From Macrostomum lignano (lineage: Eukaryota), in contig NIVC01004410.1 in assembly GCA_002269645.1 (NCBI GenBank), positions 1 to 46,845 of the forward strand: a stretch of 46,845 bases of DNA. Reading direction: 5' to 3'. The notes under the pieces are model-generated. The model was not told where the DNA came from. It was given only the letters and a program-made list of their open reading frames with translations, and did no database searches. Below are positions 898 to 28,195 of this stretch, piece after piece. How positions within the stretch are numbered: position 1 is the stretch's first letter; every line of letters begins with the position of its first letter. The translations under genes were made by a program, and so were the position numbers.

Positions 898-1815
898 AAC
901 GACAACAAACTGCTTCTACGAGTACAAGTCAGCGTGAAAATCAACATCAACCAGAAGATTCCATGCTCAACCACCGGAAGCTGCTCAACTACCGGAAGCT
1001 GCTCAACCACCGGAAGCTACTCAACCACCGGAAGCTGCTCAACTACCGGAAGCTGCTCAACCACCGGAAGCTGCTCAACCACCGAAGCTGCTCAACTACC
1101 GGAAGCTGCTCAACTACCGGAAGCTGCTCAACTACCGGAAGCTGCTCAACTACCGGAAGCGATGGAACGGTCGACAGACACCCTGTCGCAGTCGTCCATC
1201 CCGAATGTACCGCCGCCACCGTATCCTGGTTTACCGCCAGAAGCCGCCGCCGCTGCTGCAGACGAGGATAACAATGCGGCAAATACTGACGATGAGGACA
1301 TCGAGATGGCTCAGGACGCGGCTGCGGAAGCGGCTGCAGCGGATCTGCTGGCCGCTATGGAGGCCGCTGAAGTGGCTGCCGCTATTGAAGAAGCGGAAGC
1401 GGCCTCCTCCTCAGCAGCAGCCGCCGCCCCTGCCGCCCCCGCAGCGTCGTCTCACTCGGAGGTGACCAGTCTGGATCAAGTTGCCAACGAATCGGATTTG
1501 GATAAGCTAAGCGTTCGCGAGATTAAACAACTGCTAGTGCGCAACTTTGTTGACTATCGCGGCTGTTTAGAACGTGCTGAACTGCTGGAACGACTGCGCA
1601 GGCTGTACAGAGAGCATGCCGTGTCTAAACAGGCTGTCCTGCATGACGAATTGGCCGACTCTGACCTGTGCAAGATCTGCATGGACGCGGCCATAGACTG
1701 TGTGCTGCTGGAGTGCGGCCACATGGTCACCTGTGTGCAGTGTGGCAAACAGTGCTCGGACTGTCCCGTGTGCCGGCAGTACGTTGTAAGGGTTGTGCGA
1801 ACTTTTAAGTCTTGA
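898..1815 (+). CDS. RNF34: 3' terminal exon of an RNF34/RFFL (CARP)-type RING E3 ubiquitin ligase; 5' exons (FYVE-like domain expected) lie outside the window
   Basis: C-terminal RING CKICMDAAIDCVLLECGHMVTCVQCGKQCSDCPVCRQYVVRVVRTFKS* and upstream LSVREIKQLLVRNFVDYRGCLERAELLERLRRLY both match RNF34/RFFL as recalled; candidate acceptor TTTTTGGACAG ends at 897; stop at 1813-1815. RNF34 versus RFFL is not resolvable. Confidence 0.85.
   Translation, partial: NDNKLLLRVQVSVKININQKIPCSTTGSCSTTGSCSTTGSYSTTGSCSTTGSCSTTGSCSTTEAAQLPEAAQLPEAAQLPEAAQLPEAMERSTDTLSQSSIPNVPPPPYPGLPPEAAAAAADEDNNAANTDDEDIEMAQDAAAEAAAADLLAAMEAAEVAAAIEEAEAASSSAAAAAPAAPAASSHSEVTSLDQVANESDLDKLSVREIKQLLVRNFVDYRGCLERAELLERLRRLYREHAVSKQAVLHDELADSDLCKICMDAAIDCVLLECGHMVTCVQCGKQCSDCPVCRQYVVRVVRTFKS
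965..1160 (+). repeat. 18-bp coding tandem repeat (GAAGCTGCTCAACYACCG; EAAQLP/EAAQPP) with a 1-bp deletion near 1084
   Basis: Unit ACCGGAAG reads ACCGAAG at 1081-1087; translation switches from STTGSC to EAAQLP. Confidence 0.9.
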
Positions 1816-2084
1816 ACAATTCTTTGTTTGTTTTTTTGGTTTATTTCCCATTATAAAAACTCTTTTCGAAATTTCTTATTCAGAGTAACTTCATATTTTG
1901 CGTACTGTAAAATTAAAATTAAACAGTATATTATTATTTTGTTGTTGTTGCTTTTATAACCTATGCCACAAATCATTTTAAGTCAACTATTGAGCGGCAT
2001 AAAGCATCGCTCAACTGTGCTGTACTACTGTTAGTAGCAACCGTAAGTGTCCGGTATCTAAGAAAAATTTCTTTTGCTATGGAA

Positions 2085-2355
2085 CAGCTTTGTATCCAGA
2101 GTAAACATCCGTTGGTATGCAACCACTTGGTATCCAGGGTAAACATCTGTTGCTATGCAACTACTTGGTATCCAGGATAAACATCCGTTGCCATGCAACT
2201 ACTTGGTATCCATGGTAAAAATCCGTTGCCATGCAACTACTTGGTATCCAGGTTAAACATCCGTTGCTATGCAACCACTTGGTATCCAGGGTAATTGGGT
2301 AAACATCCGTTGCTATGCAACCACTTGGTATCTAGGGTGAACAGCCGTTGCTGTG
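2085..2355. repeat. ~38-bp tandem repeat (GGTATCCAGGGTAAACATCCGTTGCTATGCAACCACTT), ~7 copies
   Basis: Direct periodicity downstream of the RNF34 stop. Confidence 0.85.
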
Positions 2356-3249
2356 CATTGTAGTGTAAAATAGTCCGCAATGTTGTTTTTTTGCAAATTT
2401 CTTAATATTTTTCCAAGGCAACTGGCCGTTTTCAAGTTTTTGGTTTTATTATTTTAACAGCGGTCTGAATATGTGACCCCATATTATTATTTAAATATTG
2501 CGACATTATTTTTTCGCTGTAAACCTTGCCTGTCCTTATAGTTGTGTTCCCTTTATTATTTAAGTTATAAATAAACTGTTTACTCGAAATAGCACTTCTG
2601 TAACCTTTGCCTATATTTACAAGCTAATAATGTCTTATTTTAATTTTGCAGTATTCAATTAATTGTAATGTTCAAATAGAGTTTCTGAGATTGGGATTCT
2701 GAGACTGGAGACGGGGATTCTTGGAGATGTAATTCTGAGATAGGAAAGCATAAAAATTTTTGGCCAAATATGGATGTACTTTTATGTCGTGCTCTCGTAG
2801 TTATATTTTTTGTGATCTTTCTCCAGTGTTTGGCCACGAAATTTAAGATGATTAAAATTGACTTCATTACTTTCTATTATCTGTTCAAACATGGTGTTGG
2901 GTTTTATTTTTGTCAACTTTTCTGTGAGAAAATTATAATTTGTCTCTTTAGTTTTGTCACAACCAATATTATATCTACACTGGTCGCAGTAGTAGCACTT
3001 TTGATAGAAAAAAGCTAAAAACGGTGCAACTTCTAAGCAGTCGCAGTAATCTCCCGTCTGTCTGTCCATTATTTAATAATTGCATGCATTAAAACAGATA
3101 GTAATAATTACAAGCCTAATTACCAAATACATTCAGTACATGCACGGTAATAGCATGCATCGGGCTTTTGTAAAATTTGTTTGTAACTTTTAATTCTCAG
3201 ACTACAAGTAAAAATTATTAGCGTGTTTGTTTTCTATTTTAATTAACTG

Positions 3250-3628
3250 TACTCTTCCTATCTCTGTCTGCACCACCCACCCCAATATACACACTCCCTA
3301 CCTCTGTCTGCACCACCCACCCCAATGTACACACTCCCTACTCCTGTCTGCACCACCCACCCCAATATACACACTCCCTACCTCTGTCTGCACCACCCAC
3401 CCCAATGTACACACTCCCTACCCCTGTCTGCACCACCCACCCCAATATACACACTCCCTTCCCCTGTCTGCGCCACCCACCCTAATGTACACACTCCCTA
3501 CCCCTTGTGTACACACTCCCTGCCCCTGTCTGCACCACCCACCCCAATGTACACACTCCCTGCCCCTGTCTGCACCACCCACCCCAATGTACACACTCCT
3601 GCCCCTGTCTGCACCACCCATTCCAATG
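3250..3628. repeat. ~40-bp tandem repeat (CCCTACCTCTGTCTGCACCACCCACCCCAATGTACACACT) just upstream of the RPP30 ATG
   Basis: Direct periodicity; source of spurious ORFs 3227..3655 and 3507..3752. Confidence 0.9.
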
Positions 3629-3684
3629 TACATCGTCATCGGCATTGTCACATAAAAACTCTATATACTACTTGTCACTTATTT

Positions 3685-5541
3685 ATGCCGCAGTCAAATC
3701 GTTATTACGACCTGAACCTGCTGGACAGGCAGGAGGCCATGGTGGCTCGTAGCCAAAATCTCGGCTATTCGCACCTGGCATTCGCTTCGGTGCACACCAA
3801 CATCAAAGTTCCACCGCCGCCGCCCTCACCTCTGCCAACAGCGGCTGGATCTTCTGGTTCCGGTAGGCTATGGCGAATGAGTATATCAGAGAGCATATCG
3901 AAGGTCCTAGTGGTGAAGCTTTAGTGCTGTTGAACTTTGTTTTAAAGGGTACGGATATTTTTTATAATGAAGATAAAATTGAAGTTAAGTTCAGTGAGTC
4001 AAAGTTCCTGAGGTGTGAAGTTAGGTGACTCAAACTTCCTGAGGTGTGAAGTTAGGTGACTCAAAGTTCCTGAGATGTGAAGTTCAGTGACTCAAAGTTC
4101 CTCAGGTGTGGAGTTCAGGGACTCAAATTTCCTCAGGTGTGGAGTTCAGGGACTCAAATTTCCTCAGGTGTGAAGTTCAGGGACTCAAAGTTCCTCAGGT
4201 GTGGAGTTCAGGGACTCAAAGTTCCTCAGGTGTGGAGTTCAGGGACTCAAAGTTCCTGAGGTGTAAAGTTTAGTGACTCAAATTTCCTGAGGTGTGAAGT
4301 TCAGTGACTCAAAGTTTCTGAGGTGTGAAGTTCAGTGACTCAAATTTGCAAGAATGCGCAGTGACAGATATTTAAACTTCAAAGCATATTTTCTCCATCA
4401 ACCACTCCGACTCCAGGCTCTGTGTGGTCCCGCACGGGAAGTCGCGTATGCCGTCTCACCCTAGCTTTCGGGCCGGAAGTTCAAGAAACCGAGCTGAAGT
4501 CCTATTTCCGTCAGCACGCCAAAGAACTGGAGGCCTACGATCTGTTAGCCGTGCTGCCTAAGAGCCAATCGGCTCTGCACGCCTGCGCAGAGACTCTGCC
4601 TGTGGATCTCATCGCTTGCGATCTGGGCTCGCCTAAGTTGGAGACATTCTGGTCAGATTTTCGCGACATTCGAACAGCAGTTAGGCGAGGTATTAAGATT
4701 GAGGTTAGTTGCGACGCCGGATCATCCGGACACTTGAGAGTGTGGAGTTGCTATAGGCAGGCTGACAGGCCGACTTAAGCTACTGACAGATAGATATTTA
4801 GGTATCTAGAGACACAGACACTAACTCAGACAGACAGACAAATAGACAGATAGGTATACAAACAAACACTAAGACAGACATGGAGACATGGACAGGTGGC
4901 AGACAGACAGAGACATACAGACAGGCAGGCAGACAGACAGACAGACATACAGACAGACAGACAGACACTAAGACAGACAGACAGACAGACAGACAGACAG
5001 CCAAGGCCACCAATCAGAGCCTGTGCCACCCGCCCATCCCCCGCAGGTGTCCCTGCAGCCCATGCTGCACTCGCAGCAGAGCCGCATCCTGGCGGCCACC
5101 CTGCTGTTCGAGCTGCTGACCTCGGCCAGGCTGTCCCCAGACGGGCTGGTGCTCAGCTCGGGCGCTCTCAACCAGTGGGATCTGCGCGACCCGTTCGGTG
5201 TCTGCGCCCTGGCCGCGTCGCTAGGCGTGCCGCCAGACAAGACCAGAGCCTGCCTGTCAGCCAATTGTGAGTCAGCAGTTGAGCACGCGCTAGTCAGACG
5301 TAAGACTGCTCACGGCGCCCTGGCTATTGCTCAGATTGCTAAGCTGCCGGGCGTGAGCAGCGTGCAGCTGGCAGATTCGGATTCTAAGAGATCGTCGGGT
5401 AGGAAGCGACCAGCCGCCGAGGAAGCTCAAGTAGATGACGGCATGACCGACTTGACGGAGCAGCAGGACCGCCTTATCGACCTGCTGTTGCCGGCAAGAC
5501 CAAAGAAGAAAAAGAAAAGCGGAGCTGTTGTTCGAATATAG
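3685..5541 (+). CDS. RPP30: RNase P/MRP subunit p30; exons 3685-3862, 4417-4703, 5047-5541 (319 aa)
   Basis: Motifs YYDLNL, LGYSHLA, YDLLAVLPKS, VDLI, AVRRGIKIEVS, LVLSSGA..WDLRDP, LSANCESAVEHA..RKTAHG align with RPP30; GT-AG introns with compatible phases (1,0); total 960 nt. Confidence 0.9.
3985..4345. repeat. 31-bp tandem repeat in RPP30 intron 1
   Basis: Unit GTGTGAAGTTCAGTGACTCAAAGTTCCTGAG repeated ~11 times. Confidence 0.9.
4790..5000. repeat. (GACA)n microsatellite in RPP30 intron 2
   Basis: Direct inspection. Confidence 0.9.
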
Positions 5542-5804
5542 GGAATGCCGTGCTACTAAAAGTAGGCAAAGTTTAAATTTTGGTGGGATTTGTTCCTGTG
5601 CCAAAACAACAAGTTGTAAAATTGTAACTTTAACAACTTAATAATGATTTGCTTGTATTTTTGAAGTATAACCGTTGCTAATTTAGTCTGAACTATGCAT
5701 TTGTTCCTTTGCGGCCTGTTATTGACTGTGATGAGTCAGTCTTGTTACTTATTTTATTTCACTTTTTCCGTTTAGCATTGCTTAAGCTAGGGGAGGTCTT
5801 TCCT

Positions 5805-6237
5805 AACCCCTCAGATCATTCAGTGCCTGCTGCCCCTCCCCTCAGATCATTCAGTGCCTGCTGCCCCTCCCCTCAGATCCTTCAGTGCCTGCTGCCCCTC
5901 CCCTCAGATCCTTCAGTGGCTGCTGCCCCTCCCCTCAGATCCTTCAGTGGCTGTTGCCCCTCCCCTCAGATCCTTCAGTGCCTGCTGCCCCTCCCCTCAG
6001 ATCCTTCAGTGGCTGCTGCCCCTCCCCTCAGATCCTTCAGTGCCTGCTGCCCCTCCCCTCAGATCCTTCAGTGGCTGCTGCCCCTCCCCTCAGATCCTTC
6101 AGTGGCTGCTGCCCCTCCCCTCAGATCTTTCAGTGGCTGCTGCCCCTCCCTTCAGATTCTTCAGTGCCTGCTGCCCCTCCCCTCAGATCCTTCAGTGCCT
6201 GCTGCCCCTCCCCTCAGATCCTTCAGTGGCTGCTGCC
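5805..6237. repeat. 31-bp minisatellite (CCTCAGATCCTTCAGTGGCTGCTGCCCCTCC); array interrupted by the Polinton and resumes at 9046-9080
   Basis: Direct periodicity; remnant unit GCTGCCCCTCCCCTCAGACCCTTCAGTGG follows the element. Confidence 0.92.
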
Positions 6238-6442
6238 AGTAGTAATATAAAATTACGTCCATACCCATTTTTTTCAATTGCAAAACACGTAATAAGGTAA
6301 CCCGTCAGAAATTTTATTCCGCACATACCTTTATTTTCCTATAAAATCAAGTAGTAAGATACCGAACCAAATGGTAGGGTATACAACAGGAATTCTAACT
6401 ACACTGCACCGCACCCACAAATAATTCAAAAGAAGAAAAGAT

Positions 6443-7060
6443 CTAAATTTCGATCAACCAACCAACTTGTCCAAAAACGCACTTTCCGTATATTTCTGCA
6501 TTACAAGAACAGAGGCAACTAATGTGCTGTAAAGCGTCGTAGGCAAAAATACACGCGCCGAAATTCATTTCTTCGACGAGGCTCACAACCGTTAAAAAGA
6601 AGCGAAGGCTACCACCACGAGTCAGTTTGAAATACAAACAAAACAACACCCAAATACCACAATGTCCAGACCGAGGATCCTGAATAGCAAATCGGCTGTA
6701 GGACCAATTTTGAAAATCCCCACATTCTCGCCCCAACCACCGTCTAATATTTTCCGGCGGATTTAAACCAAGCGAATCAAAATATTCCCCGACCCTTCGT
6801 CCACGGCCCCCCCCCCTAACCCGCCTGCTACTCACCCAAACTGCAACCCAATGCCTACCAGGAAGATTCGAAGTGTCTGTATTCGCCACAAAGAAATAGT
6901 CTTTACCATCTAAAGGTAATTGTCCAAGAGTTCTAATCGAGTCCTGAGGATACACACCCAAAAAGACAACACCAAACAATCTCATACATAGAATTGTAAT
7001 AATTGACCGCAAGAATCTGTCACTGGCACTCTGCAACATGTTCAGATTCACTTCCTCCAT
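6443..7060 (-). CDS. Polinton/adenovirus-type (clan CE) cysteine protease, 205 aa
   Basis: FLGVYPQD, VANTD..PGRHWVAV (His), EYFDSLG (Asp), IQDPRSGHCG (Gln, Cys) in the expected order and spacing. Confidence 0.85.
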   Translation of the reverse strand: MEEVNLNMLQSASDRFLRSIITILCMRLFGVVFLGVYPQDSIRTLGQLPLDGKDYFFVANTDTSNLPGRHWVAVWVSSRRVRGGGRGRRVGEYFDSLGLNPPENIRRWLGRECGDFQNWSYSRFAIQDPRSGHCGIWVLFCLYFKLTRGGSLRFFLTVVSLVEEMNFGACIFAYDALQHISCLCSCNAEIYGKCVFGQVGWLIEI

Positions 7061-7200
7061 GCTGTGCCCGGCACGACGTCGCGAAGCTCCGTGATCTGCA
7101 GCTGCTTGTCAAATAGACCACCGAATATTACATTGTAGACAACGCGCTTGTTGCTTGAGCGAAGCGCAACTCCAACTTTACATTTCCTTCCTTATAGAGC
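7048..7200 (-). pseudogene. C-terminal remnant of Polinton major capsid protein (PY), frameshifted near 7150
   Basis: LYKEGNVKLELRFAQAT then, in a shifted frame, VVYNVIFGGLFDKQLQITELRDVV; resembles the G.LRLELKFA...IVYAEFEN.IEID..RNV C-terminus of Polinton MCP; stop overlaps the protease start. Confidence 0.55.
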
Positions 7201-7493
7201 TGAGCACCATGCACGTTACGTCTACGCAAAAAAGCGAGAAAAGATTCAAAGCCACCTACCATGTCTTTTTAGCGGTCTGTCTCGGACAACATACTCCGCC
7301 TCCGCAGAACTACCCTCTTCGAAAAGAGTTTTTACAAGAGCGTCGTATCTCCTTTTGAATGCCTTCAGAAGCCGATTTTTGGTGCTTCCTCAACACCAAC
7401 CTCTCGAACAGGACCGCTACTTGGCCCATTTTGCAGTATTCGCCGAGAATTTTCTAGTCTTGTCTTTACACTAGCATTGCATTCACTACGAAT

Positions 7494-7721
7494 ATGGACA
7501 AATCCGCCCGAAAGAAAGAACTAGCTGAGCGATATGTGAGAGACGGTAAGCAATTATTGGGCTTTTTGTTTATTAAGAAGCTGATCGGGTACTAATGGGC
7601 TGCGTCTTCTCTCTTTGCAGCGTTCAAGAACGAGGTCTTTGCGCGGCCGCCTCCGGGTTATATGTACCCCGAGAATGTCACGGTTGCGAGGGCGAATATG
7701 CCTTGGCAGTGCAAGCCCTAG
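7494..7721 (+). CDS. Candidate small two-exon ORF inside the Polinton (7494-7545, 7621-7721; 50 aa, MDKSARKKELAERYVRDAFKNEVFARPPPGYMYPENVTVARANMPWQCKP), function unknown
   Basis: Donor GTAAGC, branch-like TACTAAT at ~7591, polypyrimidine tract plus TTTGCAG acceptor, phase-compatible. Confidence 0.35.
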
Positions 7722-8114
7722 GTACTGGGTGGTACCGCTTTTTCTTCCGGGAGATGAAGTCTGGAAAACTGACGACTATGGACTATTGGGACTTGACTGC
7801 GGACGCCTGACTGCGCAATGGAACGATACTGATATGTAGTTGTTCGTATATAATTTGGTAATATTAATGTCTACTTAGTATTGTAATAATCCACTATTCA
7901 TTAGGGAATTTTAAAGTTATTTAAAAGACTGTCATATCGCGATTTTGCGTTCGTTTGCCTTAGTTTACCATAAAGAATTTAACGTCATGATACTAAAACT
8001 GTATCCGATCTGTTCAAATATATAGAATAAGACAAGTCAAGTCGATTCGACCCTAAGACTGTTTCTCACTACGAAGGTTCAATTTATTATTGTGCATGGC
8101 CGTCAGTACCGAGC

Positions 8115-8360
8115 TCAGAAGGATCTCGTCACAGCAACACTTACAATTACCCGGTTTTTTCGGATGTGATTGGTTTGTCGATCAGTGACTGAGAATTGAA
8201 AACTGATTATGTCTTTTGGCGTGTTATACTTTAGTCCGTTAAATTCAAGTATACTTAGTTTTTTGAGCAAGTGATAGTACAACGAACAGGAACGGTGGCG
8301 AAGAACTGCAGAAATGAACAGGTTGGACAACGAAAAAATGATATTGAAGCATTCAATCAA
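8115..8360 (-). pseudogene. Possible C-terminal fragment of Polinton minor capsid (PX/penton)
   Basis: LYYHLLKK...PKDIISFQFSVTDRQTNHIRKNRVIVSVAVTR loosely fits the penton C-terminal pattern; weak. Confidence 0.25.
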
Positions 8361-9173
8361 GACAGTTTAGTGGCTTACGAATGTTAGAAATTCAAAATAT
8401 GAATGTATACCCGAGCCGAATAACTGTTAAGATATTTGGGGGCCTACTACTGTCTTAAACTAGCAACTTTTTGTCCCATCTTTGAAGTATGTATATATTT
8501 GGCTGGTAAATTTCAAATACGTTTAAAAATAAAAAATAGGAGTTTGTATCGTTCGTAATTCTCAATGGTCTTTTCTTGAAAATTTAAAAATTGGGGTCTT
8601 GAATGACTCCTGGTACGAAAGGCAGTATGGGGAGAAAGTATAAGGCGCAGCAGGCGGCTTATTTACTGCCTGTAGCCTATTCTGAGCTGGGTTTTGCTTG
8701 CAGGGGGATTGTGGCACAATTTGACTTCTGCAATTTATTAAGCTCTTTTCTTTTGTTCTTTGTGGGTGCGTGTTTCCCCTATTCTTGTAATGCAGAAATA
8801 GCTATGTCGTTTTTCAGCAACTTGGTTGATCGGTGTCGGGGTCTTTTCTTTCTCGTTCTTTGTGGCTGCACTGCAGTTTAGTTGGAATTCCTGTAGAATA
8901 CCCTACCATTTGGTTCGGTACCTTATTTGATTTTTAATACAAAAATAAGGTATGTGCGTAATAAAATTTCTGACGGGTACCTTATTACGTGTTTTGCAAT
9001 TGAAAAATGGGGTATGGACGTAATTTTCTATTACTACGAGCTACTGCTGCCCCTCCCCTCAGACCCTTCAGTGGCCGCTATTCTCCTTACTTAATTAATA
9101 TTTCTACAGTGATAAAAGCCAAATAAATGTGAGCATATCTCGCCATCTCACTGCAGCGCTCAGACCAGGCATC

Positions 9174-10207
9174 ATGAACCCATTAACCCAAGTCCGCAAT
9201 CAGCGCCTGATGACTGAGAAGGAGCTCCAACTGGGCACGGCGAACACCCAAAGCTCCTGGCACTCGATGTTCAAAGACTCCGCTTGGATCTACATTGGCG
9301 GCTTGGACTATGAACTCACCGAAGGCGACGTAATCTGCGTGTTCTCCCAATACGGCGAAGTGGTCAACGTCAACCTGGTGCGGGACCAGTCCACTGGCAA
9401 GAGCAAAGGCTTCGCTTTCCTGTGCTACGAAGATCAGCGATCAACCGTGCTGGCATGCGACAACCTCAACGGAGCCCGAGTTGTGGGTCGCACTCTGCGG
9501 GTTAATCACGTGGAAAGCTACAAGGTGAAGGAGCTGATTAAACCGGACGATGATCCGGTGAAGCAGCGGCTTAAGGAGCGCGGCTGCGCGCCTGAAGTTG
9601 GACATGACGGCGATTTGAGTCCGCCTCGCCGTCGGCGCTCGCCGCCCGCCGCTCCTGGAGGCTCAGCCGCTCCTGTGCGAGTGAAGCGCGAAAAAATCGA
9701 TCCAAATTATCCGGATTACCAACCGTCTGATCGTAGCCGTAGCCGTAACGGACATCCGGGTAGCCGCGACGGACATTCGGGTAGCCGCGACGGACATCGG
9801 GTAGCCGCGACGGACATCCGGGTAGCCGCGACGGACATCCGGGTAGCCGCGACGGACATCCGGGTAGCCGCGACGGACATCCGGGTAGCCGCGACGGACA
9901 TCCGGGTAGCAAGGATCGACAAGTCGCTAGCACGAATCGTAGAAAGAATTATAGTCATAGCCGTAGCCGTAGCCGCGATGGACATCCGGGTAGCAAGGAT
10001 CGACAAGTCGCTAGCACGAATCGTAGAAAGAATTATAGTCATAGCCGTAGCCGAAGCCGTAGCCGTAGCCGCGACGGACATCCGGGCAGCAAGGATCGAC
10101 AAGTTCCTAATCCAAATCGTCGAAGAAATCGTAGCCGTAGCCGTAGCCCACCGTCCAGAAGTGACGCTGCCAGATATCGAAGGTCTACTACAAGTAGTAG
10201 AAAATAA
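9174..10207 (+). CDS. RBMX2: RBMX2/Snu17 (RES complex RRM protein) with RS-rich tail; single exon; apparent 1-bp deletion at ~9798 (as sequenced the ORF ends at 10232)
   Basis: MNPLTQV..SWHSMFKDSAWIYIGGLDYELTEGDVICVFSQYGEVVNVNLVRD..GKSKGFAFLCYEDQRST is the RBMX2 RRM; restoring CATCCG in the 21-bp GHPGSRD repeat gives an RS tail ending TAA at 10205-10207. Confidence 0.92.
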
Positions 10208-11050
10208 TTTCAGTGGTTTTGTGTCGTCATAACAACGGTTTTGACCAAGCCTCATTGACTATTGTACAGATTATGATTTTTCAATTTGAAAGTTCTATTT
10301 TTAATAGCTTGGGAGACTGATTCTACCCAAATTAGATGAAGCCGAGAGGCAGATTCTACCTATAACTTACTGCTAATAATTATTGGCATGTTTCGTTGAA
10401 ATTTAATGCCTACCGGTAATTTTGATCCAACCAGTTCTTGCTGTTATTATTAGGTTATGTTCAGATAACGGCAGTGTACTATGCATTTTACAATACTTTG
10501 GTAAATATCAAAATATACTTTAATAAAAACACATGTTCAGTACTGATATATAGTGCTCTTCTTATGTGTATTGCAAATGTAGTTATTAACGGAGTTGTTG
10601 CTCATTTATTTTTTTAAAATCTAAAATAACACCGTTCGTAACAATTTAAAGAGAGTTGCTTAGCAAAGCAATTTACTGAATATGCGATTTAAAAGGGTTA
10701 AAAAGAATGTTAATTTTCTACAGATAATGTAAACAGATTTAATCTTAGCTCACTAATACAAGCTACTTGATTTTTTTAGATTTTTTGCAGTCATGAATGA
10801 CCTAATTTAACACTTGGAAAATTTTTTACCACAAATCAGTGATGTGCCTGTCGTTTTTTAGAAACATAAAATTTCACAGAACAGCCTTCAAAAGATTTTC
10901 TAAGAAACCAAGTGGATCTCGTTTCAACACTACATGTTTATACTTAAGTCATTCTGTGTTAACTACTCGCACAGATGTAATCTTTGTCGCTGGTCTGAGT
11001 AAATTTCAAGTTAATATATTGACTGACGCGAACTATACCATATCAGATAA

Positions 11051-14000
11051 TTAGTTCCAGTACGGTCTATAATGCTCCGGTAGGCGAGGCACGTGTCTGC
11101 GCCACAGGTTTTTGTCCTCCTGCGACAGGCGAGCTACTGGCCGAAGAAAACTCTCTGTTGCTTTCCACTTTCTTGCCGGCCTTTCCGTTTCCTGCATGTG
11201 GTAATGAGGGTTGCCAGGCTACTGATTATCTAGTGAGAATTTCACGAGTATTCCGTACCTGCATTTGCTCTAATAAAATGACAGCGTGCGCTCTCCAGTC
11301 TCAACCCGTTGAAAACGGTACCGTGACAAGAATCGCTAAAAAGTCGTTGCAAACAACTTACTTGTGACTCTGGGCGACTCTTGTGACTTTTTAACGACTC
11401 AAACGCGTCAAATGCGACGGAGGCGACTTGCGTCGCAAAAGCGTAAATCATGAAAAAATTGTCCAAGAATCGTTGAGTTGGCGTTATAACTTTTGCTACA
11501 GATACGACTCTAATTCATCAAGCGACGCAAATGCGCTTTAAACACAACTCAGTGACTACAGCGACTTTAGCACGCCTCAAATACGACTCTTTACGGCACC
11601 AGAGTCGATTTCAGAGTCACAGACAACAAAACGCTTCGTGACTTCTTTGGTGACGAATTTTTGGTGACTTTAACCATTTCATCTCATCGTTTTAGAGTCG
11701 TCTAGAGTCATTTCTTTTCATTTCTTTCATTTCATTCATCACTTTCATTCATCACTTTCATTTCATTTCATTCATTTCTTTCCTATTTTGTGTTACCTGC
11801 AACGACTGTAAGGCGACGCAAGTGACTTTGGTACGCTTCTTAGCTTAGATACCGTTTTCATCGGGCAATTCATTTATCCCTGAGCTGAGATCAACAAGAA
11901 GCTTCTCCACTCTCGTCAATTTACTCCCCATCTGCTTTCTTCTCTAACTCCTTCTTTCCCCATCCATCCCAATCTTCTGTCCTGTCGCACCCTCCTCCAA
12001 TCATATCCACAGCAACAGTAGCAACTCAAACTTCTAATTTCTCCAGGCAGTTCCATACCATTGTAATAGACCGACGAAACAGCACGGCCTCGACGGTCAG
12101 CAGCGGGAAAAACAGTCTGCCGTAGCTTACAACCTTAGCAACCTTGAAGCCGCAGCTGTCGCACACTAGATCAACGCCAATTACTTCCACGCCGGGCACC
12201 CTTTTGGCTTCGCCGCCAGCTTGGCCGCGAAGTCGGCCGCCGCTGGCGAACATCTCGACATCGACAACAACCCGGTGGATGTCGCCGATTAAGCGAAGTC
12301 GAGTCGAATGTGACAGCTGAGTGAAGCACTTGCTGCACAGAATGTCGTGATCGCTGTCAAGAACTTGACCTCGGTTGTTGTTGGCCTGATTGACGTCTCC
12401 GCCTCCAGCCTCTTGGTTATCCTCATCTGTGTTCATCATTCTTACTTGATATTCGAGCATCTGCAAGCAGGAGGCATCAAAGCTGGGAGTCATACCAAAT
12501 CGACCCAATTCGGGATTATTTACATGTATATGTTAATCTCTCACCTGAATCTCCAGTTCCCTTGCTGACATGGCAGCAACGGTCCTCACCGCCTGGGACA
12601 TCATGGCATCTCGCTCCTGATTGATGCGTTCTTTATCTTTCAGCCATTCCTGCGTTTCCGCTACAATCACGTGATAGGCGCTGTTTCTGGCCCGGCCGCG
12701 GCCCTTGGTCTGCACCATGGAGACCTCGTTGGTCACGTGACAGTAGCGCACCACCAGGTTGCAGTCGGGGATGTCCAGGCCCTCCTCAGTGACGCTCGTA
12801 CAAGCGATCACTTTGTAGAGACCGCGTCGGAAGTCTTCAAGTCTGGCCCGCTGCTCAGCCGCGTTGGTGCCTCCCGTCGACTCGCCAGATGTTGCACCTG
12901 TCACGTAGGTAGCCTTAAGACGCAGTTCCGCACACTCGTCTACAAAATCGGCCAGAACGCGAGCGTAAAATTTCTGTTTTACAAAAACGATAGCGCGACT
13001 GTTTGGCTGGCCGGTGAATTGCTCGCGAAGAATTTCGACAAGCTTGTCCAGCGGTGGGCTGGACTGGAACATACGAAGGAGGAGTTCATTTTACAGGTTA
13101 ATACGAAGGTCTGGAGTCTTGCGAGTAAAGGGCATAAAAAATCAGCCTCTATGCTGTCTACCCCCATTACTTCCAAATGACTGCACTGTCAAAGAAACCC
13201 CTACTCATCCTGCGTCCATTTTTAATATACTCGTACTATCAGAACTAAAAAATCCCTAGACCCAGTAACCATGTTCCTCACCGAAGCCTCCTTTGTGCCG
13301 CAGAACCTGATCAATTGTTGCATTACGTCATCCAGATGCCGTCTCAGTCTTTCCTCAGCCTCGCTTGCCGGTGGCTTTGCCATCTCATCCTCGGTTCGCA
13401 GCTCCGTCTCCAAATAGCGCAACGCGTCCACCGCGCGAAAGCACTGCGCAATCATTTGAGCCTCGTTGCAGCAGCCAAGATACCTGCTGCAGGCTAATAT
13501 ATTCTTGCAAACGGTTTGGTCAGTGATGTTGTGCATGTTGTACTTCACGTTGGTGCAGTAGTTCAAGTACGCGGGAGTGCCTCGGGGAGGCACAGACGAC
13601 ACTGGCAGGCCTTCACTCTGCCACTGTTCAAGTGAATCGCAATAGTCGCGCAGAAGGCCCTCGCCCATGTTCATTAATCTGTTTAGCAGGTTGATAAACA
13701 CGTCGACTTTTGTTGGATCGCCAGGTGCATAGTGTATCTGGCAATCGGGATTTGATGTCACTTCATTGAGCGACTTGATGCAGCGCTGCACAGTGACTGG
13801 ATATGGGCAGTCGAGATTGGCGCACAGCTTGATTAGATGCTCCACGGCGGCCTCGAGTCGCGATGCTTTGCCGGTGCCTTGTTTGTACGAATGTTTTTAA
13901 GATGTTAGCGCATTAGACTGTGCGGTTGTACTTTTACTGGGTGTATTTAATGGCCTCTAATTAGGCTTTGAATTATCTTGAATAGCTACGGTTTTCTAGT

Positions 14001-17000
14001 GCTCTCCGTTGTAGTTCTCCAATATTCTATACATGTAGTGTCTGTTTGGAGTTCTCTAGCATCCATATTAAGGTTCGTGGAAACAACCCACTAGTGGTTC
14101 TAGCGAATGTTATTTGAAGACTCAAGCGACTGTAATGCAACTGTTGAGTCACGAGCGCATCACGTGCGAATCGTAAGAGTCGTCCAAAAGCCGTTGCGTT
14201 AGAAATTTTCTACTAACTCAAGTAGACTAAATAGATCGAGTTATTACACGTATGCTAGTAAACTGTGCAAGTCGATTCTAGTTCATAAAGTGATATGTTG
14301 AATGCTTTTTTCCTGAGCGTATTTAGCCACTCGGCAGATTTTGAAGGAAAAAAGCATTGCGGGCAAACCTCGGTGGGAAAAAAACTCGGCGGGCAATTCG
14401 CTCGCGGGCAAAATGCACTGCGGGCAAATCTCGACGGGAAAATCGTCTGCGGGCAGTTCTCATGGACCTGACTCTGAGATGCTTCTTGGCCTAGGTACCG
14501 TTTTTTTATCAATAGTGTTCTCTTAATGTCCCTTGCATTGTTTGGGTAATCTAGTATCTCTCAAGCGTCCCTTGTTACAAACTGCACTGTCTAAGTCTTT
14601 GAGGGTTTCTGGTATCCTTACTTAAACTCCCCCCTAGTGTTATCTTTTGGCTATAGTTGCTCCTAGCAGCTCTCACCTGGACTGGCCGTCAGTCCCAGAA
14701 TCTGCGGCAGCTTGCTTCCTTTCTGTTGCTCTTCAACCGACGATTCAAGAATCTTCTTTCGCCGCATATAGTGCACCATCACCCCTTTGCTTGGGTGGTC
14801 GTTTGAGCAATTGTGACACTCGTCGAAGATAATTAACCGAAATGCCGACACGCCCAGGCCGTTGAAGCTGTCGGGTTCGCGTTTCAAAGCGTTCAGCAGA
14901 ATCTGAGTGCTCATAACAATGATGGAGTGCCCCTTCAGAGCCTGGGCGAAAGGCATTCGATTTCTCGAATCCGCTCCACCGTGCACCGGCGGGCAGACGC
15001 TGTTGTGCCAAGGCGGCGGCAGGACCGAGCGGAACTCTTCGTACTGCTGCTGCACCAGGTTCGTTGTAGAGGCCAGGAATGCTACCTGAACCAAAAAATG
15101 TACAAAAAAGATGGAAACCGCGGTCCGACTTATACCCAAACATAACAGAACAAAGTTTTGCTTTTTTCACCCACCTTTGCTTGGGGCTCGGCCTTGAGCA
15201 GCCGCAGAGCGACGTACACGGCTACCAGAGTCTTCCCAGAGCCAGTGGGCGCGATCACTATCGAGTTGCGACCTAACAGGGCCGGCTCTGCCAACTCCAG
15301 CTGGTAGTCGCGGAGCTGCCGGCCGACGAGCTCGTTGTTGCCAGACGGCTGAGACCCAGGCGGCGATGGAGGCTGCTGATTGGCTATTCGCTCAAGCTTG
15401 TAAGTGTCAGAGTCGAACTTCAGTCCGTTGAGATCGAACCACCGGTTCGATTGGTCGACGACCGACTTTTTGGCCTCCTCGAACTCTGGACTCGACACCG
15501 TGTTGTAGAGCTTGGGCTGAAGCGCCGGGAGCTCTAAAATGAATGGGTGGCGATGCATTGAGACTGAGATTGATCATCCTTGAGTTCCCAATCTCAGCAA
15601 AGGTGGAGTCTTCCAGCTGCTTTTGCTCTGTGATTCAACCAGCTATTTCTGATACAATAATCTGGTCTCTCACCTGACTCGAAGTTTTGGCCGAACGGTG
15701 CAATGATGTTGAGCAGATCGACTGAGCTCTCGAGGTCAGCGATAGCAGCGAGGATGAGGTGCTCAAACCAGTCGTGAGGTGCGCAATCGATGAGCTGGCG
15801 AAGCACGCGATGGACGTCTGCGGGTTGAGGCGACAAGGGGAGATCTGGTAAGGGATCTGGAGATGGGGTCATGTGATCATGGTCATGTGACAGGAATCAG
15901 AAAGATAAATGAAAGCACCTCAGTAACACAGAAGCTCAGCAAATCAGCAACTCTGCATCTGAGCATTCTAATACCTCAGCAACTGAGCACCCCAATACCT
16001 CAGCAACTGAGCAGCCCCAACAACTCAGCAACTGAGCAGCCCCAACAACTCAGCAACTGAGCAGCCCCAACAACTCAGCAACTGATCAGCCCAATAACCC
16101 AGCAACTGAGCAGCCCAATAACTCAGCAACTGAGCAGCCCAATAACTCAGCAACTGAGCAGCCCCAATAACTCAGCAACTGAGCAGCCCAATAACCCAGC
16201 AACTGAGCAGCCCAATAACCCAGCAACTGAGCAGCCCAATAAATCAGCAACTGAGCAGCCCCAATAACTCAGCAACTGAGCAGCCCAATAACCCAGCAAC
16301 TGAGCAGCCCAATAACCTAGCAACTGAGCAGCCCAATAACTCAGCAACTGAGCAGCCCAATATCTCAGCATCTGAGCAGCCCAATATCTCAGCAACTGAG
16401 CAGCCCAATAAGCAATAACTCAGCAACTGAGCAGCCCAATAACTCAGCAACTGATCAGCCCAATAACTCAGCAACTGAGCAGCCCAATAACTCAGCAACT
16501 GATCAGCCCAATAACTCAGCAACTGAGCAGCCCAATAAGCAATAACTCAGCAACTGAGCAGCCCAATAACTCAGCAACTGATCAGCCCAATAACTCAGCA
16601 ACTGAGCAGCCCAATAACTCAGCAACTGAGCAGCCCCAATAACTCAGCAACTGAGCAGCCCCAATAACTCAGCAACTGAGCAGCCCAATAACTCAGCAAC
16701 TGAGCAGACCAATAACTCAGCAACTGAGCAGACCAATAACTCAGCAACTGAGCAGCCCCAATAACTCAGCAACTGAGCAGCCCCAATAACTCAGCAACTG
16801 AGCAGCCCAATAACTCAGCAACTGAGCAGACCAATAACTCAGCAACTGAGCAGACCAATAACTCAACAACTGAGCAGCCCCAATAACTCAGCAACTGAGC
16901 AGCCCCAATAACTCAGCAACTGAGCAGCCCCAATAACTCAGCAACTGAGCAGCCCCAATAACTCAGCAACTGAGCAGCCCCAATAACTCAGAATCTGAGC

Positions 17001-21414: not shown

Positions 21415-24400
21415 ATGGACGGTGGCGAAGAAAGCGTTGAACTCGAAGGACTTATTAGCCTTCTTTTCCATATATTTAAAGACGACATTGAAGGACTAAT
21501 TGACATTGGCAATATTGTGGCTGTGTACGAAAATCATATTAAAAATGGTGAGTGCCTCAATACTAAACTTTGAAAACCTGTAAAAAGTGTAATTCATCTA
21601 ATCGATAAATTTATTGAAATTTGACAATAATTATCGTTACTCAGCAATGTCTGCTCCTGATCGAATTTCCACCCAATGCAGCTCATCCCACTCAAGGAAT
21701 TACCATGAATCGGCCCAGCAGTTGGTCCGAATTGCTGCAGGTTGTCGGCCAATTGCCAATCGAAGACGCATTCAGCCAGCTTCTGCGCTGCATCACAAGC
21801 TGTAAGTGCTGTCATGCTGAGCTGTACATGCGAGAAAGCATAATGAATGCCAACTCATCTCCCTGTGAACCCACGCAACAGCAGCACAGGAGAACTTGCT
21901 GCACATTCTGCACCTGGACAATCGGCGGGATCTGCCGCGTCTTCATCGGCTGCAGTTGTCAGTGCCGGCCAGCCTTCCCGCAGCACTGCAGAGAGACGTC
22001 TTCGCCCAGTCACTGCAGGACTTCAGCAAGTCTTCTGAAGATCTTGACGGCGACGGGAGTGCAGCACGTGAGCTGAGCTGAGATGCTGTGCTGCTGAGTG
22101 GGCTGCTCAGATTCTGAGTTATTGGGGCTGCTCAGTTGCTGAGTTATTGGGCTGCTCAGATGCTGAGATATTGGGCTGCTCAGTTGCTGAGTTATTGGGC
22201 TCCTCAGTTGCTGAGTTATTGGGCTGCTCAGTTGCTGAGTTATTGGGCTGCTCAGATGCTGAGATATTGGGGCTGCTCAGTTGCTGAGTTATTGGGGCTG
22301 CTCAGTTGCTGATTTATTGGGCTGCTCAGATTCTGAGTTATTGGGGCTGCTCAGATGCTGGGTTATTGGGCTGCTCAGTTGCTGAGTGGGCTGCTCAGTT
22401 GCTGAGTTATTGGGCTGCTCAGTTGCTGAGTTGTTGGGGCTGCTCAGTTGCTGAGTTATTGGGCTGCTCAGATGCTGAGTTGTTGGGCTGCTCAGATGCT
22501 GAGTCATTGGGCTGCTCAGATGCTGAGTTATTGGGCTGCTCAGTTGCTGAGGTATTGGGGTGCTCAGTTGCTGAGTTATTGGGCTCCTCAGTTGCTGAGT
22601 TATTGAGCTGCTCAGTTGCTGAGTCATTGGGGCTGCTCAGTTGCTGAGTTGTTGGGGCTGCTCAGTTGCTGAGTTGTTGGGGCTGCTCAGTTGCTGAGGT
22701 ATTGGGGTGCTCAGTTGATGAGGTATTGGGGTGCTCAGTTGCTGAGGTATTAGAATGCTCAGATGCAGAGTTGCTGATTTGCTGAGCTTCTGTGTTACTG
22801 AGGTGCTTTCATTTATCTTTCTGATTCCTGTCACATGACCATGATCACATGACCCCATCTCCAGATCCCTTATCAGATACCCCCTCATGTCGCCTCAACC
22901 CGCAGACGTCCATCGCGTGCTTCGCCAGCTCATCGATTGCGCACCTCACGACTGGTTTGAGCACCTCATCCTCGCTGCGATCGCTGACCTCGAGAGCTCA
23001 GTCGATCTGCTCAACATCATTGCACCGTTCGGCCAAAACTTCGAGTCAGGTGAGAGACCAGATTATTGTATCAGAAATAGCTGGTTGAATCACAGAGCAA
23101 AAGCAGCTGGAAGACTCCACCTTTGCTGAGATTGGGAACTCAAGGATGATCAATCTCAGTCTCAATGCATCGCCACCCATTCATTTCAGAGCTCCCGGCG
23201 CTTCAGCCCAAGCTCTACAACACGGTGTCGAGTCCAGAGTTCGAGGAGGCCAAAAAGTCGGTCGTCGACCAATCGAACCGGTGGTTCGATCTCAACGGAC
23301 TGAAGTTCGACTCTGACACTTACAAGCTTGAGCGAATAGCCAATCAGCAGCCTCCATCGCCGCCTGGGTCTCAGCCGTCTGGCAACAACGAGCTCGTCGG
23401 CCGGCAGCTCCGCGACTACCAGCTGGAGTTGGCAGAGCCGGCCCTGTTAGGTCGCAACTCGATAGTGATCGCGCCCACTGGCTCTGGGAAGACTCTGGTA
23501 GCCGTGTACGTCGCTCTGCAGCTGCTCAAGGCCGAGCCCCAAGCGAAGGTCAGTGCTGAAAGCAATAAATTTATCATACCACACAACATAATGGCAGTGG
23601 GAATAAAATGGAGACAGCGGAGTTCACAATTGCCGTCAGCGCTGGTTTACAAGACGATGTCGCCGATTGCTTTGCACCAGTGTGCCAAGTGCCATGTTTC
23701 ATGTTAAATGTTTGAACATTTGCCCCATTTTCAAACGCCATAATATCTTAGGTGGCACTTCTGGCATCCACTAATCAGCTGGTTCAGCAGCAATACGACA
23801 AGTTCAGGTCCGCCCTGCCCTCACCTTGGCGGGACAGAGTTGACCTAATTCTGGGAGGCAAAGACAACAAGAATCGAAAGCCATTCGCCCTGTCTATGAA
23901 GAAAAACTCCATCCTGGTCATTAGCACCCAAATTCTATTAAACGAGCTTGATAGAAAAACAGTTGCGAACATTTCCGATTTCCGCCTCATCATATTCGAC
24001 GAATGCCACAATTGTGCAAAGAGCCACGCCAGTATGAAAGTGATGATGCACTACCTGCGACTGAAGAGAGATCTGGAACAAGAGAATCAATCGGGAAGAT
24101 TCTTGCCGCGGATTCTTGGGCTAACGGCCAGTCCAGGTAAAATGCTAGAAAGGCATGAATTATTAAATTCTTGTTTTTAAGCTATTTCACGTCTAACGAT
24201 GCCTGATCTGTTCATTGTGTCTGATCTGTAAGGACACTCAATGTCCATTGTGTCTGATCTGTAGGGACACTACTGTCCATTGTGTCTGATCTGTAAGGAC
24301 ACTACTGTCTATTGCGTCTGATCTGTAAGGACACTCAATGTCCATTGTGTCTGATCTGTACGGACACTACTGTCCATTGTGTCTGATCTGTAAGGACACT

Positions 24401-27400
24401 ACTGTCTATTGTGTCTGATCTGTAAGAACACAACTGTCCATTGTGTCTGATCTGTAAGAACACAACTGTCCATTGTGTCTGATCTGTAAGAACACTACTG
24501 TCCATTGTGTCTGATCTGTAGGGACACAACTGTCCATTGTGTCTGATCTGTAAGGACACAACTGTCCATTGTGTCTGATCTGTAAGAACACAACTGTCCA
24601 TTGTGTCTGATCTGTAAGAACACTACTGTCCATTGTGTCTGATCTGTAGGGACACAACTGTCCATTGTGTCTGATCTGTAAGGACACAACTGTCCATTGT
24701 GTCTGATCTGTAAGGACACTACTGTCTATTGTGTCTGATCTGTAAGGACACTCAATTTCCATTGTGTCTGATCTGTAAGAACACAACTGTCCATTGTGTC
24801 TGATCTGTAAGAACACAACTGTCCATTGTGTCTGATCTGTAAGAACACAACTGTCCATTGTGTCTGATCTGTAAGGACACTACTGTCTATTGCGTCTGAT
24901 CTGTAAGGACACTACTGTCTATTGCGTCTGATCTGTAAGGACACTCAATGTCCATTGTGTCTCATCTGTAAGGACGCTACTGCCAGTGGACAAAACGCCA
25001 ATTAAACACCCAAAACATTCAAACGTCCAAAAAACCTGCACCTCAAGGCACCGGCAAAGCCAAGGGACCAGAGGATGCCAAGGAGCATCTTGTTCAACTG
25101 TGCGCCAATCTTGACTGCCCCTACCCTGTCACTGTGCAGCGCTATCTTCAGTCACTATTTAAATTTAACTCAGATCAAGACTGTCAAATCCTCTCGGTAC
25201 CTGCTAAACAGAGCTCGGAAGACGTATTCATTAAATTTTTAAACGAGCTGATGGACCTTGGGGAGAAGCTGCTATATAGCAATCGGAGCTCGCTGCTAAA
25301 CTCAGAGCCGGAAGCCCTCCAGATTGCATCAGCGCCGCCAAGAGGCACTCCAACTTACACAAACTACTGCTCCGATGTTAAGTACAAAATTCACCAAGTG
25401 GCAGACGAAGAGATGGGCAAAGATCTGTTCGCCTGTAGTCGTTATCTGGACACATTCAATCAAGCGTATATGATTGCGCAGTTCTACAATCCCCGAGGTG
25501 CGTGGCGCTACATCAAGAAAGAACTTCGAGCTGTGGACGAACTGGCTAAGCCCCCAGTCTGCGAGGCGGAGAGTCAACTGCGGCAGCGACTGCATAGCCT
25601 GATCGGGCCGCTAGAAAGATTCTGCGACACCAAAGAAGCTTCGGTAAGTTTGTTATTGAGTGCATTTAGCCAAATGCAACGTTCCATTATTTTGATGACT
25701 GGTTTATCGCTTGCAGTCGAGTCCTCCGCTGGACAAATTCGTGGAAATCCTTCGCAACCAGTTCAACTCGCAAGCCGACTCGCGAGCGATTGTTTTCGTA
25801 CAACGGAAAATCTACGCTCAGGTGATTACTGAGTTCTTAAACGAGCAACTACCGCATCTACCGGCTGCCTATGTGACTGGCGCAACTTCAAGCGACGCTT
25901 CCGGAGGCACTAATGCTTCTGAGCAGCAGGCTCGCATTGAGGGCTTCCGGCAAGGCGACTACAAAGTGATTGCTTGCACCAGTATGGCGGAAGAAGGCCT
26001 AGACATACCGGACTGCAACCTGGTGGTGCGCTACTGTCACGTGACAAACGAAATCGCCATGGTGCAGACCAAAGGCCGGTGCCGGGCCAAAAACAGCGCC
26101 TATTACGTGATTGTAGCTGAGACACAGGAGGCGCTGCGTCACAAGGAACGCGAAAATGAGCTGCGCGATGCAATGATGCAGCAATCAGTGGCGTGCGTTA
26201 CTGATTTAACGACTGAAGAGTTGGTAGTCAAGGTGAGAATCTTTCAGTTTTTTGTCGACAGTTTCAATCGCTGTGTTGACTTAAGGACAACTTTGTTTTT
26301 CTCTGTGCTGTGCCTCTTCGAGAGTTATAGCCAGGGACTACTATAACATCGAGACGGGAAACTAGGCAAATCATGGCAAAGTTTTTACGAGGCTGGTTTG
26401 CGAGGTTTACGAGGATCTTTGAGTAGTCCCTGGTTTTATAGCCTAGTGAGGACTCATGACTAGAAGGTCGGGTTTTCGAATCTCTACCCACTCGGAACAA
26501 TTCGTGACAAAGATACTTAACTTTACATTTTTTTAGTTTACCCAGCTAGCTGTAAAGTGGATGCCAGCATTAGCTGGGGTAATTGAGGGTGGGTGGCGAC
26601 CCCCCAGTCCTTTGACTGAACAGCCGTACGCAGCCTTCAGATGCGCCGCGCAATAGCTGCGGCTGAGCTGTCGGTTGCACATCTGGTCATTAGGGCAGGT
26701 GTAATCAATTATAGACGATTAAAGTTATGAATTCTCTTCTCTGATTCTCTTCTTTACGAGTTCTTGTGCATTATTAATGTTGGGTGTGGCCATAGACGAT
26801 TCAGTTGCACACACACCCATGCAGCCATGAGCTAAAGAAGCAATGCTTCAAGCTGGGAAAATAAAAAAGAAGGTTACGATAACATGAAATAAGACGCTCG
26901 GTTAAGAGAGCAAATACTTAAGAGGTCTTGGCTCACTGTCTTCCGCTAGAGAAGAAGTCATAAGAATTAGATTTGTTAAAATTCTTTTAGCCTTCTATAA
27001 GCTTTATACGCTACTGCTATAAGCTTTCAATTGCAGATGCTGGATTACCAGGAAAAGGCGCTGAAAGACGAAGAGGAAAAACGTGCTAATAATAGCACAC
27101 CTATCGGAAGTGACGTCATCATTGATAGCGACCACGAAATTCTGTGCCGCAAGTGTGAAAAAAAACTGTCGGATTCGACTCGGCTTCGATTGATTTGCGG
27201 AATCCATCGCGTCGTCCTGGATGCCGACATGTTCATTGGAGGTCAACGCATTGTTGGTCAACATGGAGGCGAGATCAAAAAGGTTCCCGGAATGGATATG
27301 ATTGGTGTGGATTTGCTGTGCGGCTACTGCAGCTACGGACCTGTGGCTAAAATTGCTCGCTACAAAGGCCAATTTTTCCCTTTGTTGGACCCGGAATGCG

Positions 27401-28195
27401 TCTGTTTTCGCCGATTGAATGACAAGGTAAGACTTCTATAGTTGGTATTGAAATTCTGTTCATTTAGAACGCAAATGAAATAAAATATGTAAATACTGAG
27501 CCTGTAAGAACATGTACGGTCATGTCAAGGCTTACGGGGAGAATTGCTGAGATGTCAAGGCTGATGGGGAGAATTGCTGAGATGTCAAGGCTTACGGGGA
27601 GAATTGCTGAGATGTCAAGGCTTACGGGGAGAATTGCTGAGATGTCAAGGCTTACGGGGAGAATTGCTGAGATGTCAAGGCTTACGGGGAGAATTGCTGA
27701 GATGTCAAGGCTTACGGGGAGAATTGCTGAGATGTCAAGGATGAGAGGTCAGAAGCTACATGTGGTTTATTCAAAAAATGATTCTATTTTTTGTTGCCTT
27801 TTTAAAGGGGGCGCTGATTGCTAGCAGTCACTATCGGCCCTAAAAGACGGCCTCAGCATTTCAATAATTTACCCCCATATGAGCCTTGACATCCGAGCAA
27901 TCCCCCATAAGCTATTGACATCTCAGCAATGAAACAATGCAGCAGTGAAAGTGTAAAAGCCTAACGAATTACCTCGGAAGGAATCGATCATGGCCGGAAG
28001 ATAATGGATCGCAACACCTTTCCTCATTTACTTTAGAAATTGGAAAAACAGGTGAGAAAGTGGAAACATACAAAATCCTTCCTTCGCGATGTTGCTGAGC
28101 TGAGCAGTGACGATAGAGACTACTGGCGTCGGGCAGTTCCGCGTCTGCCCAGACAGTACCGAGCTGCGGCAGTTCGAGGCGGAGCGCATCGTTAA
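21415..28195 (+). CDS. RIG-I-like receptor B; exons 21415-21547, 21682-21801, 21882-22067, 22906-23049, 23190-23548, 23752-24136, 25048-25643, 25717-26232, 27037-27426, 28037-28195 (995 aa)
   Basis: Same motifs (APTGSGKT, DECH, GLTASPG, TSMAEEGLDIPDCNLVVRY, QTKGRCRA; CTD CRKC/CGYC, RKWK); same intron positions and phases as RLR-A (1,1,1,1,0,1,0,0,0); total 2988 nt. Confidence 0.9.
22085..22790. repeat. 24-25-bp minisatellite in RLR-B intron 3 (inverted, shorter counterpart of 15905-17010)
   Basis: Unit TTATTGGGCTGCTCAGTTGCTGAG. Confidence 0.95.
24215..24980. repeat. 32-bp minisatellite in RLR-B intron 6
   Basis: Unit TGTCCATTGTGTCTGATCTGTAAGGACACAAC, ~24 copies. Confidence 0.95.
26430..26500 (+). 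mobile_element. Possible decayed tRNA-derived SINE head in RLR-B intron 8
   Basis: A-box-like TAGCCTAGTG and B-box-like GGTTTTCGAATC about 30 bp apart; no clean cloverleaf. Confidence 0.25.
27522..27740. repeat. 30-bp minisatellite in RLR-B intron 9, with degenerate inverted copies at ~27855-27930
   Basis: Unit ATGTCAAGGCTTACGGGGAGAATTGCTGAG x7; GAGCCTTGACAT and TTGACATCTCAGCAAT occur downstream. Confidence 0.85.

Follow-up and report, generated by a model that had tools for sequence, protein, structure and literature searches.

The element at positions 6238-9045 of the window (the whole stretch of 46,845 nucleotides of Macrostomum lignano DNA that was analysed) is most probably what is left of a single Polinton/Maverick insertion after internal deletion; its five same-site copies were likely produced by duplication of the host genome and of its segments, and not by transposition. 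The assignment to the Polintons rests on the end motif, a 6-bp target site duplication (TSD), terminal inverted repeats (TIRs) and DNA homology to a full-length relative in the same genome, G000:C2529:17164-35936 (hereafter C2529).

The element is 2808 bp long, starts with AGTAGTAAT and ends with CTACT; the AGTAG termini and the TSD GCTGCC described in the earlier note are both present (Table 1). The spacing of the minisatellite units across the element is 2845, that is, 2808 + 31 + 6. The excess of 37 over the length of the element corresponds to one 31-bp period plus 6, and therefore exactly 6 bp of the target have been doubled and the array has stayed in register. A 13-bp imperfect TSD that takes in the extra bases of the right end was rejected, given that it needs four changes versus one insertion and that all 13 two-ended family elements examined, at five different sites, have a perfect 6-bp TSD. 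Insertion into the minisatellite is thus confirmed, but the continuation on the far side claimed in the earlier note amounts to one unit only, versus 14 on the left; in the sibling copies, the left array has from 10 to 46 or more units. The long imperfect TIRs also withstood scrutiny, with about 280 bp aligned at 81% (BLAST) and a local alignment score of 265 versus a maximum of 28 in 500 shuffles. The true TIR comprises the outer ~195 bp only; at TIR positions 196-282 the end types differ by 22-25%, in the 2.1-kb relative too. The (AGT)2 end motif is perfect at the left end, while at the right end AGTAG is followed by a 7-nt insertion.

Table 1. Features of the element and its surroundings, in positions of the window.
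Feature	Position	Strand	Remarks
RNase P p30 gene, last exons	4365..5541	+	flanking host gene
31-bp minisatellite, 14 units	5807..6237		host DNA left of the element
TSD GCTGCC, left	6232..6237	+	sequence read at both junctions
Left TIR, protease-side end	6238..6519	+	outer ~195 bp true TIR; inner part degenerate family extension
Polinton cysteine protease	6443..7060	-	His, Asp, Gln and Cys motifs present; frame broken near 6590 (C-terminal side)
Major capsid protein (MCP) gene, last ~52 codons	7054..7211	-	frame-broken; from comparison with C2529
Junction J1	7210..7212		~3.2-kb deletion relative to the full-length relative; 2-nt microhomology
Fragment (~240 bp) of a 232-aa ORF	7211..7452	-	ORF adjoins the integrase in C2529; further small deletions
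Junction J2, to the opposite element end	7445..7452		5-nt microhomology
Subterminal region, sister end type	7453..8771		absent from C2529; common to the 2.1-kb element and C1157/C1638
Two-exon accessory gene (80 aa in unbroken copies)	7494..7810	+	exon 1 7494-7545; exon 2 7621-7810
Right TIR	8772..9045	-	from end-to-end alignment
7-nt insertion in the terminal AGT repeat	9034..9040	-	in 5/5 same-site copies
TSD GCTGCC, right	9046..9051	+	sequence read at both junctions
Single minisatellite unit left over on the right	9046..9079		from unit spacing
RRM-domain gene	9176..10232	+	flanking host gene

The gene content of the element was determined by comparison with C2529, which is 18,773 bp long and has both ends and the TSD CAGGTC. 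Pfam recognises in it a pPolB, an integrase with a chromodomain, an A32-type ATPase, PLA2, dUTPase, dNK, TBP-like and protease genes, and its core genes are open. Its 441-aa and 330-aa ORFs, which match no Pfam family, we take to be the major and the minor capsid protein (MCP and mCP) from their size and from the gene order of known Polintons. The known gene order used for naming the capsid genes is that in the available text of PMC8097293. The pPolB of C2529 carries an endonuclease VII domain, and inside one end of C2529 the TIR and part of the protease are repeated in degenerate, inverted form.

Positions 1-975 of the element, which span the TIR, the protease and the last ~52 capsid codons, align to the first 980 bp of C2529 at 92%, with 5.2% substitutions. 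The minus-strand ORF at 6443-7108 matches the pS273R protease of African swine fever virus (ASFV) with an E-value of 4.7e-5 and, weakly, the Pfam family Peptidase_C48 (E 0.08), and the encoded protease is 88.5% identical over 157 aa to that of C2529; the protease ORF and the capsid remnant proposed in the earlier note are both borne out by these comparisons. Weak Toxin A matches in the search that gave pS273R reflect a match to a 30-residue repeat and were ignored. Pfam gave no significant family for 11 other short ORFs of the element, and tblastn of the 13 ORFs of C2529 against it was significant only for the protease, the MCP tail and the fragment of the 232-aa ORF. Relative to C2529, J1 removes most of the MCP gene, a 159-aa ORF and the integrase, and at J2 the mCP, ATPase, PLA2, dUTPase, pPolB, dNK and TBP-like genes are lost. 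Judged from its sequence, an element with no pPolB, integrase, ATPase or whole capsid genes of its own is not autonomous. The search for a parent proposed earlier brought a full-length 18.8-kb relative, but the genome searches, in which only the best candidates were scored, gave no full-length element with the right-end sister type.

Modules are mosaic among the long elements. In G000:C889:27500-41800 compared with C2529, identity is 99.5% for MCP and 97% for the protease, and 77% for pPolB, 64% for dUTPase, 61% for dNK and 53% for the TBP-like protein. DNA similar to the right arm, including exon 2 of the small accessory gene, is also found at G000:C12:913640-914026 and 937258-938077, beside genes of distant Polintons with 25-37% identity to the C2529 proteins; this arrangement suggests an exchange of subterminal DNA between Polinton families.

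Searching the genome with the element gave at least 118 matches, among them at least five full-length 2.8-kb copies at 97-100% (best 40 of 155 candidates scored); copy counts are lower bounds, given that the searches score the best candidates only. The TSD, the minisatellite and the right flank are common to all five copies. With tandem repeats masked, window 1404-37757 is colinear with C679, window 1404-14345 and 1404-10881 with two inverted copies on C1153, and window 1404-9178 with C2550, up to the end of that contig. Given that all five copies have one TSD and shared host flanks, they represent one insertion, probably copied along with the host DNA. The J1 pattern, with one mismatch allowed, is matched in the genome at the five copies only, and the unique right flank occurs five times, each time adjoining the element, the other 26 of its 31 matches being 34-bp minisatellite. 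The right-flank search shows no empty site in the assembly, and the contigs of eight runs hold no joints that skip the element, although contigs cannot show absence.

The shared flanks hold genes for a rififylin-like RING ligase, RNase P p30, an RRM protein and two RIG-I-like helicases. A larger carrier transposon was rejected, the shared flanks being ordinary host genes over at least 36 kb, with which a giant carrier would still be formally compatible. The RRM gene, presumably RBMX2-like, contains a 21-bp repeat (window 9739-10148) in which the stop-to-stop frame shifts register relative to the Arg/Ser-rich frame at 9785-10207, possibly through an assembly slip. The two helicase genes (window 12026-15573 on the minus strand and 23150-27441 on the plus strand) are inverted and head-to-head, also on C679. 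Further along the window lie an (AGTAG)n array of 148 units (35005-35746), which has the same pentamer as the element terminus, probably by coincidence, and a 118-bp satellite with 47 units at 99% identity (41298-46845, up to the contig end).

The copies differ pairwise by 3-33 substitutions in ~2800, and two pairs differ by only 3 substitutions each; some of the five may be assembly redundancy. Duplication by the host is the likely copying agent. According to the available text of PMC10733133, Macrostomum lignano is a hidden polyploid with three subgenomes ~1.4-2.4% apart, and hidden polyploidy also appears in the accessible part of PMC5704211. In G000:C1153:14500-39800, an inverted duplication presents the block of RING ligase, RNase P p30, element and RRM gene twice, and on C2893 the 2.1-kb element likewise occurs twice at the same site, in inverted orientation.

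The same-site copies also record decay. In four of the five copies, 10 nt of the protease and 42 nt of the ORF fragment are deleted, whereas C679 has both stretches; the two deletions are therefore later than the duplication of the locus and represent decay in place. Loss rather than gain is indicated for both, given that C2529 also has those stretches. None of the five copies keeps the protease frame of C2529. The proposal of the earlier note that a full element was deleted in place therefore holds for the deletion itself, which C2529 maps, and for the small deletions as to their place, whereas the large ones are untimed: both are present in 5/5 copies, and no less-deleted or empty version of the site was found, so that their timing before or after integration can only be inferred. 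We consider it quite probable that they arose after integration, by microhomology-associated repair.

Three other short two-ended members of the family were found, of 1.9 kb (two copies), 2.1 kb (four two-ended copies and one cut by a contig end) and 4.1 kb (one copy). Each has one TSD and its own junctions, with no internal junction in common among those compared. The 4.1-kb element (G000:C3475:18359-22469) has a perfect TSD and two ends of the dNK-side type, and its same-site copies, which differ by large rearrangements, share only its right part on C1378 and C1839. The pattern of the short members is that of a graveyard, in line with the 96% of vertebrate Maverick loci that are degraded according to the available part of PMC8097293.

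The strongest alternative, which we nevertheless hold to be unlikely, is that the mini-element arose as a defective recombinant while a helper Polinton was replicating and was afterwards integrated once in trans, with only the small deletions made in place. The 2- and 5-nt microhomologies at the junctions fit template switching, but host end-joining is generally known to leave such microhomology equally well. Short elements, all with perfect TSDs, occupy four of the five two-ended sites examined, as expected of such recombinants, but short two-ended elements are also the easiest to find in a 10-kb fetch. The two same-type ends of the 4.1-kb element point in the same direction, although its same-site copies indicate that large changes do occur in place. 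The TIRs, moreover, diverge more than the non-synonymous decay of the protease predicts: outer TIR mismatch is 20/185 here, compared with 5/187 in C2529, 8/190 in the 2.1-kb and 17/190 in the 1.9-kb element, while 151 protease codons carry 7.5 synonymous and 6.5 non-synonymous changes specific to the element (ratio 0.26). Because these changes are mostly synonymous, most of the divergence from C2529 arose under selection, with little neutral decay. Dating by TIR divergence was dropped, given that the inner TIR differs by end type throughout the family and that synonymous changes predominate in the protease. The closest full-length relative lacks the end type of the right arm, and the two arms may come from two family members. 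Nonetheless, the long elements are themselves mosaics of modules (C889 versus C2529), so that a mosaic full-length parent, which is plausible, would explain the arms. A wider version of this alternative would have flatworm Polintons shed short two-ended recombinant genomes in replication, in the manner of DI viruses, each integrating once with full-length help; the 1.9-, 2.1-, 2.8- and 4.1-kb elements would then form a fossil series, the 2.8-kb one still expressing a spliced orphan gene, and this too we regard as doubtful.

The 7-nt insertion noticed earlier in the terminal AGT repeat of the right end is present in all five copies; the 7-nt pattern has one more match in the genome, on C2902, in unrelated sequence that holds no element. 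An exact genome search gave 36 family termini, and among those inspected no comparable extension was seen, the five copies apart. Slide-back or jump-back priming, as in phi29 and adenovirus, adds or removes whole repeat units. The link of the insertion to slide-back made in the earlier note found no support, since the insertion is of 7 nt and not of whole AGT units, with three bases untemplated by the repeat, and since a 4-nt analogue is post-integration. This analogue interrupts the AGT end repeat in one of three same-site copies of an older family member (G000:C48:192591 versus C322:216096 and C102:690721); it therefore arose after integration, and the motif gains insertions in place. The 7 nt more likely came from host repair or from slippage.

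The accessory gene of the element, which the earlier note does not mention, starts with an ATG at 7494, has a 75-nt GT-AG intron (7546-7620) and ends with a stop codon at 7808-7810. Splicing was checked in the contigs of 8 of 24 runs, the kinds of which were guessed, none being recorded as RNA, and for which contig depth does not equal expression. The intron is exactly skipped in four of the eight, by joints in X11 and X16 and by loose ends matching the other exon in X12 and X19; the contigs of X1, X2, X4 and X13 contain no intron-skipping joint. Contigs of X11 (6876-7544) and X12 (7155-7545), with 0 differences, and of X19 (6590-7545), with 7 differences and 2 gaps, run across both J1 and J2 as far as the splice donor. 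The spliced form therefore stems from the 2.8-kb element, and the gene is likely transcribed from the element locus.

These observations raise the question of whether the remnant has been kept by the host through co-option of the spliced 80-aa gene or its transcript, which we consider highly improbable. Splicing in four of eight runs, with contigs crossing element-specific junctions, would speak for it, but the run types are guessed and contig depth is not expression. Exon 2 has a pN/pS of 0.20-0.23 versus five relatives (62 codons, uncorrected), but this purifying signal comes from comparisons among family members, and all of it may go back to the time when the element was active. C1153b and C679, the copies furthest apart, also have identical exons 2, but at ~0.7% divergence chance alone can leave 189 nt without differences. 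The exon 2 frame itself is unbroken in two of the five copies and broken in three, including the window copy (near 7683), which argues against co-option.

The product of the gene corresponds to the 80-aa database record P0001, which is labelled Macrostomum lignano. It has no Pfam family, its Atlas matches are below 0.9, and the only homologue in the 34-111 aa range is itself. A search with E up to 0.001 gave 21 representatives, of which one is the protein itself, another a close relative, and the other 19 are short matches within large proteins; five of these 19 were checked, and all five lie in proteins with Ig-like repeats. The structural model (pLDDT 60) matches no fold in PDB or BFVD at E 0.001. 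Paralogues at C1638:160447, C272:386460 and C889:44173 have 34-41% exon-2 identity and keep the GT-AG intron at the same position and phase, those of C889 and C272 adjoining dNK and TBP-like genes. Further family members are found at G000:C1157:254151, C1638:162909, C1113:304650, C870:167812 and C12:937410. The accessory gene belongs to a small family of Polinton genes in which the position of the intron is conserved. Nematode Mavericks have intron-bearing cargo beside the TIR (available part of bioRxiv 10.1101/2022.07.12.499685), and dinoflagellate elements have introner-derived introns (available part of PMC12166617); the spliced accessory gene is a further example of intron-bearing Polinton cargo and no new kind.

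The weakest explanation is the non-autonomous derivative mobilised in trans of the earlier note, a MITE-like or satellite-like family moved repeatedly, which is extremely improbable: intact termini, five near-identical copies with the same junctions and full-length relatives with open core genes would suit it, but the proposed genome-wide search, which did find several 2.8-kb copies with the same junctions, found no different TSDs, so that, as judged from junctions and flanks, the test for such a family failed (5/5 copies share TSD and host flanks), J1 occurs nowhere else and the short members share no junction.

In the preferred reading, that of a single insertion deleted internally and copied by the host, a Polinton of a low-copy family would have integrated once into the last minisatellite units between two host genes, its own integrase presumably making the 6-bp TSD. 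Two large deletions with short microhomology would have cost it ~85% of its length, and the locus would have been duplicated by the host, with the element decaying further afterwards, a later decay that is observed. With both ends kept, the element could in principle serve as a substrate for a helper; no new insertion is present in the assembly. Signs of activity are confined to the small spliced gene.

Kapitonov and Jurka reportedly described non-autonomous Polintons of zebrafish in 2006. Like non-autonomous Polintons and MITE-type derivatives, the element has kept both ends and lost the core enzymes; unlike the non-autonomous Polintons, which form multi-copy families with different TSDs, it has one insertion site. 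An exact-phrase literature search for non-autonomous or mini Polintons matched a single paper, on Tlr1, from which no absence from print is claimed. With the animal Polinton/Maverick fossils in the available text of PMC8097293, the element shares the 5'-(AGT)2//(ACT)2-3' end motif, the 6-bp TSD, a TIR within the range of 46-1447 bp, a protease adjoining the major capsid gene and the degraded state of most loci. It differs from the intact Mavericks of that text in its length (2.8 kb versus 12.7-24.6 kb) and in being without pPolB, integrase and ATPase, and from its Mavericks generally in a right end motif interrupted by 7 nt and in a flatworm host. As in nematode Mavericks, to the extent of the available part of bioRxiv 10.1101/2022.07.12.499685, there is an intron-bearing accessory gene in a variable subterminal region while the core genes are intronless; unlike the nematode cargo, the gene here encodes an 80-aa orphan with no Pfam family, fold or named homologue, for which a host origin is not claimed.

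The element is thus an ordinary Polinton fossil and, as degraded Mavericks are the norm, matters little as it stands. It carries the warning that, in a polyploid assembly, multiple copies with identical junctions do not amount to mobility. From its same-site copies, small deletions and terminal insertions can be placed in order relative to the host duplications. If the short elements did pre-date integration, an animal genome would hold evidence of defective Polinton genomes that depend on a helper.
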